A stretch of 56,455 nucleotides of DNA from a virus (Duplodnaviria > Caudoviricetes): positions 1 to 56,455 of the IMG/VR virus record IMGVR_UViG_3300035660_000010. One strand, 5' to 3'. Made by a program: the position numbers and the translations under genes. Of this stretch, positions 9,240 to 50,296 are shown one piece after another. Within the stretch, counting starts at the first letter, position 1. Each line of letters opens with the position of its first letter. The notes beneath the pieces were generated by a model. It saw only the letters and a list, made by a program, of their open reading frames with translations. It ran no database searches and was not told the DNA's origin.

Positions 9240-9425
9240 TTACCACTCCAACTCATTCAAAATATAATAAACATAATCTTTGCAGCATATGCCGCGCTCA
9301 CTTGCCCAAAAATCCTCCATGCATTTCATGCTGCAAAATCCATGTCCATGTGGAGCAAAGACTGGTTGCTCAAATGGTGTGCCACAAAGTGTACACCGGT
9401 CAATTTGAGTCTTCCACTTTACCAT
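9240..9425 (-). CDS. Small Zn-finger protein, W-tail family (ILNELEW*)
   Basis: CTLC...FCSMKC; GGAG SD before ATG 9425. Confidence 0.7.
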   Translation of the reverse strand: MVKWKTQIDRCTLCGTPFEQPVFAPHGHGFCSMKCMEDFWASERGICCKDYVYYILNELEW

Positions 9426-9463
9426 CTTCAATTCTCCAAAAAATGTATCTTACAAGATGATAT

Positions 9464-10276
9464 CTATACTTTTGGATTATTGTCATTCGTTTCTTTGCTT
9501 TTCTTTATATCCCCATGAGTAATGAGTTTAGTACAATGGGGGCATTTCATAATAACATCCCCTGCTGTGTCTCTCCACCATTGAGAGTCAGCTTTTGTGA
9601 GAGGGTCTACGTCAGGCAGGTCATTTTCTAACCTGTGTAGTTTCCCATAATAATGAGACTTTTCTTTATTGGTGAGCCTATGATGATTACCCCTGTACCA
9701 CTCCGTGAGTTCAGAGATAGTGCTGGTACTATTGATAACATCCATAGGATGAAGAGCCTTCAAGGGACCCCTTTTTTCAATCAGGGGAATTAATTTGTCT
9801 AATGATACAGCCACAAATATTTCATTATAATCCTGCCAAAGAAAACAAACTGAATCTTCATCGTCAAACCAGCTCCGATGAAAGGTAAATTGTGTGCCAC
9901 CAGTAGCCATATAGCGTGGGGCTGCAACAAAGGTAGGGTCTAATGATTTGTAAAATATTTCGGAGAGAAGGGCATAGTGTGGACTGCGACCAAAAGCAAA
10001 AACCAGAAACTCATCATTACCAAAGTCAATCTTCCCTATCCACTTTCTTTGAAGCTTATGCGTCTTATCTTCGGCTGTTTTCTTACATTCAATCTGCAAG
10101 AAAATCCCATCTTTTGAAGCACGAACATCGTGTTTTCCAGTCGTCTCGGCTACCTGTTCGCTCGCTCCTGAAAGAGGATTGCGGTGTGCATCCCACCCCA
10201 TTCCCTGTAGTGTATTGCGTACTCGATATTCATATGCGGTCCCTCTTCCTTTTGGTGCCGCACCACCGGGGCTCAT
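9464..10276 (-). CDS. Holliday junction resolvase, Hjc-type PD-(D/E)XK, with C-terminal extension
   Basis: KGRGTAYEYRV...SGAS...HDV...QIECK. Confidence 0.75.
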   Translation of the reverse strand: MSPGGAAPKGRGTAYEYRVRNTLQGMGWDAHRNPLSGASEQVAETTGKHDVRASKDGIFLQIECKKTAEDKTHKLQRKWIGKIDFGNDEFLVFAFGRSPHYALLSEIFYKSLDPTFVAAPRYMATGGTQFTFHRSWFDDEDSVCFLWQDYNEIFVAVSLDKLIPLIEKRGPLKALHPMDVINSTSTISELTEWYRGNHHRLTNKEKSHYYGKLHRLENDLPDVDPLTKADSQWWRDTAGDVIMKCPHCTKLITHGDIKKSKETNDNNPKV

Positions 10277-10752
10277 ATCGCACCTTCTTTTTTATCTAAT
10301 ATTTTAAGTATATTAGTTATGATTTTTTGTGCATCAAAATGTTTATGAAGAAATATGCCCTCAAGCATTAAATGACAAGGCCAACAAATCTTAATACATT
10401 TTTGGCATTCTTCAGTAATTTTATCAAGATTTCTTGCACCATTTAAATACCTACCTACACAGAATAATTCGTTCGATGAATCTTTGTGGTGAAAAGTAAT
10501 TCCATCATGGCCCAACTTATCAAATACCCTACTACACATGGAGCAAATTAATGGTCCTACTCTTTTAATAAAATCTTCTTTCTTCTTTGCAACTCTTTGT
10601 GGCCTCTTTTCACTCACCTGTTTCCCTTTGCATATTTTACAAAGATATCCAAAACCATCCCATTGACTGGCATCTTTATAAAACTCATCTCTTGTTTTCC
10701 GCTCCTTACAACACCCACACTTTTTAAATTCACTTCTCACTTTTCTAGGCAT
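10273..10752 (-). CDS. HNH endonuclease
   Basis: CxxC...FYKD..DG..YLCKIC; C..C...FHH...ECQKC..ICWPCH. Confidence 0.8.
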   Translation of the reverse strand: MPRKVRSEFKKCGCCKERKTRDEFYKDASQWDGFGYLCKICKGKQVSEKRPQRVAKKKEDFIKRVGPLICSMCSRVFDKLGHDGITFHHKDSSNELFCVGRYLNGARNLDKITEECQKCIKICWPCHLMLEGIFLHKHFDAQKIITNILKILDKKEGAI

Positions 10753-10794
10753 TGTTCTGTTCCCTCAAAAATTCAACAATGTTATTTATTATAT

Positions 10795-11211
10795 CTAACT
10801 TAAACATTTATGCTTTTTGACTCCTTCAAGTATCATATGGCAGGGCCAACAAAGCATAATACACTTCTTGGTTTCATCCAGAATAGCCTCCATAGTTTCC
10901 TGTTGATTGCCAATCATCCTGCCAATCGAAAACAATTTTTGTGCTGGATCAAGATGGTGAAAAGTGATTCCATTCTTACCTATTGTTTCATACACCATTT
11001 CACACACGCCACATTGAAGTGTCCCCATCTGCTTTGCAAACTGACCTCTCCTTTCTGCAGTTTTGAGAGGTCGAGTACGACGAGAGCCTTCGATATTGCA
11101 TTTTTTACAAACATATTGCAACCCATCTTTATGTGCTCCACTCTTAAAAAACTGATCGATATTTTTATTCTTATGACATCTTGAACATTTCTTTTTATTA
11201 TTTGACAACAC
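10795..11211 (-). CDS. HNH endonuclease, tandem paralog
   Basis: Same architecture (GITFHH...LCWPCH); GTG start at 11211 with GGAGG SD. Confidence 0.8.
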   Translation of the reverse strand: MLSNNKKKCSRCHKNKNIDQFFKSGAHKDGLQYVCKKCNIEGSRRTRPLKTAERRGQFAKQMGTLQCGVCEMVYETIGKNGITFHHLDPAQKLFSIGRMIGNQQETMEAILDETKKCIMLCWPCHMILEGVKKHKCLS

Positions 11212-11231
11212 TATATACCTCCAACGATTTC

Positions 11232-11744
11232 TTACTTTACAAATGCCTGCCCGCTTGCCACCAAATAGACGAAAAGGCCACAAAAAAAGAGAAGAGTACA
11301 CAAATAGAAAGCATTTGAAAGAGCATTCAAAAAGGGATGAACATTTGCAAAATTTTCTTTCTTGTAATTAACACACTTTAACTCATACAGCCAATGAGCA
11401 TCTCTGCGTTGCACCACCAGTGAATCGTGCCAATGTTGTATCCTTTTTTGTGTAGCACCACAATGAGGGCAGTGTGCATTTGAGGTTGTTTTAGAAGATG
11501 CTATTCCAACTCCAAATCCAGAGGAAGACACACCTATCCCAGCACTTTCAGTTATAACCTTATGACCAATAATGCTTGTGGAGATTGGCCTACCACAATC
11601 AGGACAGGCTACCAAAGAACCAAGATTGAGACACCAACACTTACCAGGACACTTTGTAAGTCCGTTATTGGGACAGGTAGGTTCCTTTAGATCATTTTCT
11701 AGATCATTTTTATATGCATTGTAGAAATCATTTTTCAATGACAT
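11232..11744 (-). CDS. Zn-ribbon protein with C-terminal membrane anchor
   Basis: CPDC/CPHC and a hydrophobic C-terminus. Confidence 0.6.
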   Translation of the reverse strand: MSLKNDFYNAYKNDLENDLKEPTCPNNGLTKCPGKCWCLNLGSLVACPDCGRPISTSIIGHKVITESAGIGVSSSGFGVGIASSKTTSNAHCPHCGATQKRIQHWHDSLVVQRRDAHWLYELKCVNYKKENFANVHPFLNALSNAFYLCTLLFFCGLFVYLVASGQAFVK

Positions 11745-11750
11745 ATTCTC

Positions 11751-49245: not shown

Positions 49246-49246
49246 T

Positions 49247-49528
49247 TTACCACTCCATTTTATCTAACCTTATATGAGACACCAACAAATAATCAACCTT
49301 ATTGTTGATAAACCATATATTACAACAATCTTCACATAAATATGTATTTTGGTCATCCCATGGTCCAGCCTCTGGACAAGGGAGACCCTTTCCATTACAC
49401 CATGGACAAAAAGTGATATCTTTTATTAGAAGACTGAAATCCAATCGATAAGCTCTCACGCTGCATTCAGTGCAAGATATCATGTTAAGCTGAACAGGTT
49501 TATTGCACCAAAAACAATATCCTATCAC
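49247..49528 (-). CDS. Double Zn-ribbon protein, W-tail family (LDKMEW*)
   Basis: CFWC/CTEC, CPWC/CEDC. Confidence 0.7.
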   Translation of the reverse strand: MIGYCFWCNKPVQLNMISCTECSVRAYRLDFSLLIKDITFCPWCNGKGLPCPEAGPWDDQNTYLCEDCCNIWFINNKVDYLLVSHIRLDKMEW

Positions 49529-49532
49529 TATT

Positions 49533-49760
49533 TCACCATGGTGTGTAATTTAAATATTCGTGCACTAAAAATAGGTAAAGATCAACATCACATACCCACA
49601 CCCTGTCGCACTCTTTACAGGAGGCATGTGGAAGCATGCGTTTGGCACTCAGATACCCCTGCTCCACCCACCAGCAGCAGTCTGCCTGTCGTCCACAAGA
49701 TGGGCAACATTCGAGATCCCAGGTTATTCCACTATAAACTTGATTTTCTTGCTCAGCCAT
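49533..49760 (-). CDS. Zn-ribbon protein, W-tail family (LNYTPW*)
   Basis: CPSC/CKEC. Confidence 0.7.
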   Translation of the reverse strand: MAEQENQVYSGITWDLECCPSCGRQADCCWWVEQGYLSAKRMLPHASCKECDRVWVCDVDLYLFLVHEYLNYTPW

Positions 49761-50113
49761 GTATTAATGACTTCCTCTTCCCTTTCCTGTCCATCCTCTG
49801 TTGTTATCTTTACCTTTGTGGTCGACAACTTTTCCCTCAAGACATCAAGAACTTGTTTCTTACTTATGCCCAGAGCTACCAATAAGGCTAACCAACTTGT
49901 CTTGTAAAGGTATGGGGCATCGTTCAAAACTTCTTCTTGCTTATTGGGAACGTACGCTATTACCTTCTTTTTCTCATTCGCATCCCAATCATAGAAGTTG
50001 TGTTCCTTTATCCACCAGGACCGGATACAATCGCTTCGAGTCTTTACGAGGAAATCCCCCTCCTCCCCGTATCTGTATAGAGACACCCAAACCTTACGCT
50101 TTTTCGTACCCAT
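49724..50113 (-). CDS. Hypothetical protein with SWLALLVALG motif
   Basis: 129-aa ORF. Confidence 0.6.
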   Translation of the reverse strand: MGTKKRKVWVSLYRYGEEGDFLVKTRSDCIRSWWIKEHNFYDWDANEKKKVIAYVPNKQEEVLNDAPYLYKTSWLALLVALGISKKQVLDVLREKLSTTKVKITTEDGQEREEEVINTWLSKKIKFIVE

Positions 50114-50114
50114 T

Positions 50115-50258
50115 TTACCATTTCATTACTTCCAGCACATATACTATAAATATACATTTATCACATATTCTACTACCATCAGGATTATAACAAGGAACTA
50201 CAATCCGATGAGAATCATCCCTTTGCCATTCCTTGCAGTGAACACATTGCCATTCCAT
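50115..50258 (-). CDS. Small Zn-ribbon protein, W-tail family (LEVMKW*)
   Basis: Manual 47-aa translation; CVHC/CDKC. Confidence 0.65.
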   Translation of the reverse strand: MEWQCVHCKEWQRDDSHRIVVPCYNPDGSRICDKCIFIVYVLEVMKW

Positions 50259-50296
50259 CCACCACTCCGTTTTATTTAGATGATCGCACACAACTC

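Follow-up and report, generated by a model that had tools for sequence, protein, structure and literature searches.

Why do so many small genes of one phage end in nearly the same codons? The question is raised by a 56,455 nt stretch of DNA that is the entire IMG/VR record IMGVR_UViG_3300035660_000010. This stretch, referred to here as the window, is only part of a phage genome. An earlier note, made from the DNA letters alone, had listed 16 open reading frames (ORFs) that end in tryptophan, with one more that ends LNEKEY, and had proposed that they share a C-terminal tag, (L/I)-N-x-x-(E/K)-W. All 17 ORFs lie on the minus strand where the note had placed them, and have the last six residues that it gave. 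We call these residues the tail, number them backwards from the C-terminus (-1 to -6), and name each gene by the position at which it ends. Note that 93 tiling genes were called in the window, and all counts of gene ends rest on these. Our tentative answer is that the tail serves as a recognition tag, specific to this phage lineage, whose codons are shared with the Shine-Dalgarno (SD) sequence of the next gene.

Sixteen of the 93 genes end in Trp, all on the minus strand, against a Trp content of 1.6% in the proteome (binomial p=2.4e-12). Across bacteria, certain residues are depleted at C-termini, and Trp is one of them (PMC7246954). Including gene 40405, which ends LNEKEY and so provides the single terminal Tyr beside 16 terminal Trp residues, tail bearers make up 17 of the 93 genes (18%), or about one gene in six. 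Other positions were tested conditional solely on a terminal Trp, so the test is unbiased. Asn occupies position -5 in 10 of the 16 genes (background 4.0%; 4 of the 77 other genes; p=7e-11) and Leu or Ile occupies position -6 in 14 (p=2e-10). Glu or Lys is found at -2 in 15 genes, with Glu in 12, and Glu or Asp at -4 in 10. Three tails are preceded by GG or G. The strict pattern [LIVM]N..[EKQ][WYF]-stop matches 10 of 473 six-frame ORFs in the window, compared with 6 of 9771 ORFs from 97 other phage or metagenome loci (1.24 Mb); two of these six are in L016 and L017, which are relatives of the window. The word GGAGTGGT has 15 copies on the coding strand and none on the opposite strand. Eleven copies are at gene ends, all in the single frame that reads E-W-stop, two are non-terminal relics (50267 and 14830), and two are internal, in-frame E-W pairs (19423 and 9703). 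We conclude that the tail is strongly enriched at gene ends in the window. A degenerate tail 18-mer found 15 single-copy loci in IMG/VR, with one GGAGTGGTRA each, which is about the number estimated to occur by chance. The earlier note knew of no description of such a tail; our search of the literature (supplementary files aside) found none either, tail words in full text included.

Could these endings be no more than ribosome binding sites (RBSs)? The remark that GAG TGG often doubles as the SD of the next gene was correct: in 12 of the 17 tails, the last base of codon -3 and the whole of codon -2 spell GGAG. This GGAG lies 5-9 nt ahead of the downstream start, and the gap between stop and start is -1 to +3 nt in 12 of 17 cases. 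For 14 of the 17 tails, the distance to the next start is -1 to +4 nt, and TAATG, TGATG and 0-4-nt gaps are all used. Codon -3 ends in G in 12 of 16 tails, compared with 16 of 77 other genes. Across the window and orthologues, the residues encoded are M, L, K, R, G or Q at -3, and E, K or Q at -2. Codons -3 and -2 thus have an SD role. The role does not extend to the remainder of the tail. The window has 49 starts with an upstream GGAG, 38 of which are not at tails. At these 38 sites, the base after GGAG is T, A, G or C in 15, 13, 7 and 3 instances respectively. GGAGTGG occurs at none of the 38, and there is no upstream TTRAAT signal there either. Furthermore, among 39 tightly coupled junctions, 26 have other endings, for example GGAGAGTAA or AAGGAGTAA. 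Together, the GGAG sites that do not have the word and the 26 coupled junctions that end otherwise rule out an RBS as the only explanation. Hence, as the earlier note had held, overlap of SD and stop alone does not explain the terminal Trp. Five of the 17 tails have no GGAG (50115, 49533, 26924, 22329 and 21633). All five keep W, and L or I at -6, and two of them, 26924 and 21633, have no adjacent downstream start.

Other properties of the DNA were considered. Read in its +1 and +2 frames, TTR-AAT-GAN contains the stops TRA and TGA and, as such, could form a three-frame-stop cassette. This was rejected as the cause, because CTC-AAT (26924) and TTG-AAC (40405) keep Leu-Asn while each loses one stop, and because the 11 gene-end copies are in frame 0. 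Similarly, the ATG inside AATGAG was dismissed as an alternative in-frame start, because it fits the frame at 9240 and does not do so at TAATG junctions. Beyond the tail block, there is no similarity downstream of the ATG, nor upstream of the Leu codon. Folding of RNA from 10 junctions gave z-scores of -1.73 to +1.16 and no shared hairpin or other structure.

Is it the peptide that is maintained? The earlier note argued for selection at the protein level, because KW, PW and GAA-TGG variants, and synonymous Leu codons, keep the peptide and lose the SD. All such variants are present. Leu at -6 is encoded by TTA (5 tails), TTG (5), CTG (2) or CTC (1). The Asn codon is AAT throughout, with AAC only in gene 40405, and GAA-TGG, AAG/AAA-TGG and CCA-TGG are all found. 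The four Leu codons, the five tails that are free of GGAG, and the exclusively W, Y or F ends of 40405 orthologues (see below) support the argument. The proposed tag itself needs some revision. Positions -6, -5 and -1 show a peptide-level pattern, whereas -3 and -2, where E, K and Q interchange, are driven by nucleotides. For gene 9240 (9240..9425, minus strand; 61 aa, Cys-rich), the tail is LNELEW in the window, LNEKEW in L016, and LNEQEW in L017. Comparison with L016 gives a dN/dS of 0.12 and a dS of 1.36, so the gene is real and under constraint. The L017 orthologue has an in-frame 69-nt (23-codon) deletion just upstream of its intact LNEQEW.

The evidence for the peptide is strongest in gene 40405 (40405..40815, minus strand), which encodes a 136 aa member of a widespread phage and prophage family. 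The protein ends GGLNEKEY, and GGAG is positioned 7 nt ahead of the ATG of the neighbouring PTPS (QueD-like) gene. We found 296 homologues and compared the best 120. A tail of the form GGLNExx[W/Y/F] is present in only 8 of these 120, the sequences being GGLNEKEY, GGLNELEY, GGLNERKW (twice), GGLNEMEW (twice), GGLNDKQY and GGLNEMEF. Seven of the tailed orthologues are full-length and 72-97% identical; for the eighth, P0021, the match covers 77% of the query at 75% identity. Orthologues in the 72-97% range keep L-N. The other 112 proteins end 2-3 residues past a conserved CxxH, or bear unrelated extensions. In the AlphaFold model of the 40405 protein, the mean predicted local distance difference test score (pLDDT) is 93.2 and the chain is folded to about residue 128, with residues 131-136 averaging about 51. 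In this family, the tail is an appendage. Homologues and model both show it as an addition, specific to this lineage, on a domain that is already complete. A tree was made from the first 126 residues, excluding the tail, and has 1 of 10 inner branches well supported; on this tree, the terminal residue changes between W, Y and F at least three times, and never to a non-aromatic residue. In the standard genetic code, no single base change turns TGG into a Tyr or Phe codon. Hence, the aromatic-only outcomes point to selection on the residue. Searches of IMG/VR and GTDB genomes found no tailed relatives of the 40405 protein, the best matches being 56% and 55% identical, and the protein had no PDB fold match at E<=0.001. 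Note that no Pfam domain is recorded for the family (P0004-P0123), whose members are about 130 aa long and have a confident, novel-looking fold. It conserves the motifs MCWGF..GDGW, QVKEK and, at the C-terminus, CExCGAPG…C..H. P0021 also contains an intein domain.

Are the proteins that carry the tail otherwise related? They had been described as unrelated bodies, mostly CxxC ribbons of 40-120 aa. At least two CxxC pairs are indeed present in 10 of the 16 proteins ending in Trp, with lengths that range more widely, from 39 to 141 aa. Eleven tail proteins align as CxxCG…CxxC, with the tail 4-25 residues further on. After removal of the tail, leave-one-out profiles clearly recovered 4 of these 11 ribbon members (E 3e-8 to 2e-4, above every non-member). 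These are the four ribbon genes of the tandem run at 21633-22496; gene 46921 is marginal. The other 6 of 11 cannot be separated, with the tail removed, from unrelated zinc ribbons, such as a primase finger. For 40405, 39719, 37424, 26924, 22040 and 15028, the ribbon profile, again with the tail removed, gave E>=1 or no match. The last five of these have no paired CxxC ribbon, and 40405 has a CxxC…CxxH module of its own. So, there are several unrelated bodies, as had been claimed, but also four, perhaps five, paralogues (the 21633-22496 run and 46921). Scans for Pfam and PHROGs families, which covered 62 of the 93 window proteins, included 10 tail proteins; for the small ones, there was no match that was convincing or at a curated cut-off. 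The only homologue found for the 26924 protein was itself. When 1.84 billion cluster representatives were searched with the profile of all 11 ribbon proteins, there were 21 matches at E<=0.001. Eleven of the 21 were inspected: seven are the window's own proteins and four have no tail. The remaining 10 are longer proteins, for which the best match ends at or before profile position 47 of 53, ahead of the tail. As far as this search sees, the architecture of ribbon plus tail appears to be confined to this lineage. On the basis of the models, the tail looks structural in the ribbon paralogues and is probably an appended extension elsewhere.

Does the DNA that encodes the tail also move? By blastn, the phage GenBank collection holds no relatives of the window, and a search of IMG/VR with two neighbour proteins found no close ones. 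Near-identical and related contigs do occur in sediment metagenome runs of several studies (runs X2-X5 were compared). Contigs of related strains gain, lose or swap whole small genes at gene borders. In L016, genes 15028-15147 and 14835-15026 are absent. In the window, the corresponding insertion (14822-15147) is exactly between a stop and the next start. The first gene of the insertion (15028..15147, minus strand) encodes 39 aa, has no Cys, and ends LWDMEW. The second (14835-15026, minus strand) encodes a 63 aa zinc ribbon and its own frame ends FRNKK-TGA. Behind this TGA, the insertion ends in GCTGGAGTGGTAA; here, GGAGTGGTAA, at 14822-14831, is part of an out-of-frame copy that reads …SELEW-TAA. 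The second gene misses ELEW-stop by one frame, and an A-rich run, GAAGAAAAACAAACAAAG, is just upstream; the cause could be an indel or faulty assembly, or the copy may have decayed. The other relic (50262..50291, minus strand) is in a 38-nt spacer behind a primase-Zn-ribbon gene. It reads CDHLNKTEW-W, has no stop, and runs into the ATG at 50258, with GGAG 6 nt ahead of that ATG. The relic is now the RBS of the 50258 gene. Tail codons are not among the 40 listed of 1246 places where the contigs of relatives differ. The insertion, the relic, the L017 deletion and the border exchanges all fit tails that travel with cassette borders. As further observations, small genes are absent or replaced in relatives, precisely at gene borders, at 40800-41258, 44500-44757 and 39712-39896. 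In one relative, 12 letters with an SD-like GGAG replace a gene of 152 aa.

The explanation that we favour, with confidence just short of even, is a lineage-specific C-terminal recognition tag, dual-coded with an SD sequence, and recognised by a common partner that we infer. The consensus of the tag would be (G)-[L/I]-N-[E/D]-x-[E/K/Q]-[W/Y/F]-COOH. In this scheme, selection on the peptide would keep Leu, Asn, the acidic residue and the terminal aromatic. Codons -3 and -2 (NNG-GAG) would be kept as the GGAG SD sequence of a downstream gene, whose translation is coupled and whose start is 5-9 nt away; with the stop, these codons would form the coupling junction of that gene at the RNA level. 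The carriers would be many small accessory proteins, mostly zinc ribbons in which the tail ends the C-terminal helix; on unrelated bodies, the tail would be a flexible appendage. Recognition of the terminal aromatic and free carboxylate, by one common partner, would result in docking or in targeted turnover. Gene bodies would be exchanged at junctions, with tail DNA probably moving in small-gene cassettes, and selection on the peptide would be responsible for its retention. The more specific proposal, that the phage uses its own C-terminal label, (G)LN[E/D]xx-aromatic-COOH, to dock at least 17 different small proteins on one hub, is somewhat doubtful. Under that proposal, the hub would be a replisome, recombination, chaperone or protease component, encoded by the phage or by its host. 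Since the window is a genome fragment, the hub may lie elsewhere in the phage, or in the host. A small gene new to such a junction would receive the tag and coupled expression together. The earlier note had spoken of a variable-head/constant-tail system. One case, that of an appended extension of low model confidence, is as this predicts; the description is incomplete because part of the set is a true zinc-ribbon family, with a tail that ends a structural helix, and because the DNA also travels with cassettes.

Several observations weigh against a recognition tag. Positions -3 and -2 share nucleotides (NNG, NAG) rather than chemistry; these are the letters of an RBS and not of a peptide signal. 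In the model of the 21633 protein, the tail is inside a helix of residues 44-56, which begins with the second zinc knuckle (CxxC) and has a pLDDT of about 76; the tail may be structural in the ribbon proteins. The two tail copies outside a C-terminal context (50267 and 14830) are what a model of mobile junction DNA predicts. The same model predicts what is found in one X3 contig, where sequence shared with the window stops exactly at the first tail codon (46754) of gene 46734. Note that this joint, present in a single contig for which the likeness threshold was 80%, is a weak hint. TTR codons make up 10 of the 13 tail Leu codons, compared with about 40% genome-wide, which fits common descent of a DNA block. 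In gene 9240, the L and N codons are identical to those of L016 though 63% of synonymous sites differ; in a single pair with few sites, this speaks neither for nor against constraint on the nucleotides. For the 40405 orthologues, the evidence comes from eight related entries, as proteins only, and from a tree of poor resolution, on which P0016, which has no tail, falls within the tailed group on open forks.

How, then, do the rival explanations fare? According to one, the peptide is functionless and a block of about 21 nt (…GGAGTGGTAA plus ATG) is the coupling junction of small, exchanged genes. Recombination in or near the block would move gene bodies, so that unrelated bodies inherit the same last codons. 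The position of GGAG before the next start in 12 of 17 tails, the G-ending codon -3, the TTR bias, and the block retained by L017 despite the deletion beside it, are all consistent with this. So too are the out-of-frame end of the insertion, the relic that acts as an RBS, the joint at 46754, and the gain and loss of small genes at borders in other relatives. However, an element blind to reading frame would not place 11 of 11 gene-end GGAGTGGT copies in the E-W-stop frame. In addition, a neutral peptide should not switch only between W, Y and F, keep L-N in orthologues at 72-97% identity, or persist in tails with no GGAG or no downstream start. Nor is there any similarity past the ATG or ahead of the Leu codon. 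We consider this explanation unlikely.

Alternatively, the tail could be intramolecular structure, namely the hydrophobic helix end (L..L/M.W) of one fast-diverging, treble-clef-like zinc-ribbon family that has been duplicated in tandem. The carriers with no ribbon would then be chance occurrences or fusion remnants. The CxxC pairs in 10 of 16 proteins, the alignment of 11 as CxxCG…CxxC-x(4-25)-tail, the helix of the 21633 model (mean pLDDT 76), the 4 of 11 members recovered by profiles, and the arrangement of genes in tandem runs agree with such a family. The idea is nevertheless quite improbable, given that 6 of the 11 ribbon proteins lose their distinction from unrelated ribbons once the tail is removed, that at least 5 tail bearers have no ribbon, and that, in the search of 1.84 billion representatives, ribbon plus tail was found only in the window's own proteins. 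The 40405 tail also follows a GG linker, at low model confidence, on a domain that is complete in 112 of the best 120 homologues. We regard as very unlikely a signal in the RNA or for the ribosome, whereby a phage regulator targets the sequence around GGAGTGG, or nascent LNxxEW slows termination and favours re-initiation. T4 provides precedents for the former in RegB, which cleaves at GGAG, and RegA, which binds the RBSs of early genes. The strand bias of GGAGTGGT (15 copies against 0) and the closeness of the next start (-1 to +4 nt) to 14 of 17 tails would be explained. However, the 10 folded junctions share no RNA structure, the Y, F and GAA/AAG/CCA variants break the nucleotide word, and two tails have no nearby downstream start. 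Moreover, no RegA- or RegB-like protein turned up among the 62 of 93 proteins scanned for families.

Returning to the recognition tag, are there known systems of this kind? In the T7 gene 2.5 protein, the C-terminal Phe is essential, and the tip of single-stranded DNA-binding protein (SSB) is acidic with a terminal aromatic. Similarly, the tail described here, [E/D]-x-[E/K/Q]-[W/Y/F]-COOH, ends in an aromatic residue whose carboxylate is free, with acidic residues ahead of it. The SSB and T7 tails are short, follow a flexible linker, and dock partners; here, binding is a prediction only. SSB C-terminal tails are described as interaction interfaces (PMC9917605). Placement behind a flexible linker applies to the 40405 tail (GG linker, pLDDT about 51) and not to the 21633 tail (within helix 44-56). 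Unlike in SSB and T7 gene 2.5, the tail is on about 17 small proteins, rather than one hub protein, Leu-Asn is conserved, and Lys is possible at -2. Nor do the carriers look like OB-fold SSBs: none of the 10 tail proteins scanned scored above a curated family cut-off, and two or more CxxC pairs are present in 10 of 16. McdB proteins are a second comparison. These are divergent and have an invariant Trp in the last four residues, with Tyr in McdB-like proteins of other microcompartments; the authors propose that the residue mediates association with a common target (PMC8359340). Hence, as here, otherwise divergent proteins share a C-terminal Trp or Tyr. McdB differs in being disordered, in having a ParA-type ATPase as partner, and in ending V(I)WPD; here, W is terminal and the proteins are mostly small, zinc-binding and from a phage. 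No ParA-type family was reported in scans of 62 window proteins.

The DNA also has parallels. In bacteria, a downstream start is reported to influence which codons end a gene (PMC7246954). As in such coupling by overlap of stop and start, the tail GAG is part of a GGAG 5-9 nt before the next start. Unlike in plain coupling, the tail also has TGG, Leu and Asn, which are not needed there, and 26 coupled junctions in the window end otherwise. PeSL cassettes are, as the name says, intergenic units of promoter plus stem-loop. Small genes come and go at borders in the window too, and the tail block marks some of these borders. By contrast with PeSL, the block is coding, in a fixed frame, with no predicted stem-loop, and bears an RBS rather than a promoter. 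In T4-type phages, the short conserved sequences that border small variable genes in PeSL cassettes are proposed to serve modular shuffling (PMC2839356, PMC4122927). The tail does not fit the consensus of two familiar peptide signals. The bacterial beta-clamp-binding motif has the consensus QL[S/D]LF or QLxLxL; Gln is present in 0 of the 17 window tails, which have Leu-Asn at -6/-5. The scans of 62 proteins revealed no gene for a sliding clamp, in a contig that is a partial genome. The ssrA-type degron of ClpXP ends …LAA, and all tails here end in W or Y, rather than Ala-Ala. We would class the tail as a C-terminal linear motif, unusual in the number of its carriers (17 of 93 genes) and in sharing codons with the next RBS.

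The remaining carriers, all on the minus strand, are as follows. Gene 50115 (50115..50258) encodes 47 aa with CxxC..CxxC and ends LEVMKW, with no GGAG and the next start 1 nt past its stop. Gene 49533 (49533..49760) encodes a Cys-rich protein of 75 aa and ends LNYTPW, also with no GGAG. In 49247 (49247..49528), a double zinc ribbon of 93 aa ends LDKMEW, and GGAG-TGG-TAA is 1 nt ahead of the next ATG. Three genes are adjacent at 46734-47508. Of these, 47083 (47083..47508) encodes up to 141 aa (a 63-aa form is also called) and ends LNEREW, with its stop abutting the next ATG. Gene 46921 (46921..47082), a zinc ribbon of 53 aa, ends EFFMEW, and the ATG at 46919 follows 1 nt later. Gene 46734 (46734..46919), a zinc ribbon of 61 aa for which longer starts are possible (to 46997), ends LNSMEW. 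Gene 39719 (39719..39862), of 47 aa, has no CxxC pairs and ends PNEGEW, while 37424 (37424..37687), Cys-rich and of 87 aa, ends RGLNKKEW with a TAATG overlap of stop and start. Gene 26924 (26924..27283) encodes 119 aa with no zinc ribbon and ends LNESEW (CTC AAT GAA AGT GAA TGG); there is no GGAG in this tail, and the next gene, 21 nt off, has an SD of its own. Finally, the tandem run at 21633..22496 has five small genes. Four are zinc-ribbon paralogues, at 22329-22496 (INEIKW), 22174-22329 (LNDLEW), 21810-22040 (IIELEW) and 21633-21809 (LCDLKW). The fifth, at 22040-22174 (LNELEW), has no ribbon.

What surrounds these genes? Every long ORF of the window is encoded by the minus strand; the GC skew is negative throughout. 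The window represents the part of a large, uncultivated phage genome that is devoted to replication, recombination and chaperones, and the tail genes sit among the replication and recombination genes. Products recognised include DnaE with an intein, split primase parts, a DEAD helicase, SbcC, SbcD, RecA, a Cas4-like nuclease, an Hjc-like resolvase, and a dCTP deaminase/dUTPase. GroEL, GroES, trigger factor, ClpP, an RF-1-domain protein, a 7-deazaguanine set (FolE2, PTPS and a QueE-like protein) and a TnpB-like protein are also encoded. The gene for DnaE, the DNA polymerase III alpha type (16781-21391, minus strand), is split by an intein (Pfam Intein_splicing, residues 693-1106), which includes an endonuclease domain of the LAGLIDADG type. 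The phage has its own protein-quality-control genes, again on the minus strand: GroEL and GroES (51468-53418), full-length trigger factor (23888-25216) and ClpP (35293-35901). Counted with this set is the RF-1-domain protein (48739-49245, minus strand), which has a DnaJ-type CxxCxGxG zinc finger. The TnpB/Cas12f-like gene (25216-26265, minus strand; TNB domain, E=1.4e-18) is immediately upstream of the trigger-factor gene and overlaps its start; the product may be a transposon-derived, RNA-guided nuclease inside a phage. Tail genes 37424, 39719 and 40405 are interspersed among those for the FolE2-type GTP cyclohydrolase (35990-36871), the QueE-like radical SAM protein (38124-38894) and PTPS (QueD-like; 39864-40403), all on the minus strand, and this pathway suggests modified DNA bases. 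Adjacent genes at 10273-10752 and 10795-11211 (minus strand) are clear paralogues, with 40% identity over 124 aa (E=2e-38). At the place of this pair (10273-11211), L016 has ORFs of 229 aa and 159 aa.

If the tail is truly a tag, it would be a compact, transferable handle for tracing the target that many small phage proteins have in common, and could place 17 ORFans in one pathway. It would also be a clear natural example of dual coding, in which six codons provide for a peptide motif and a stop as well as for the SD of the next gene. This suggests how cassettes entering a hyperplastic region might gain signals for expression and function together. If it is instead junction DNA only, the tail would be a coding-frame analogue of the boundary sequences proposed for modular shuffling of phage genes.

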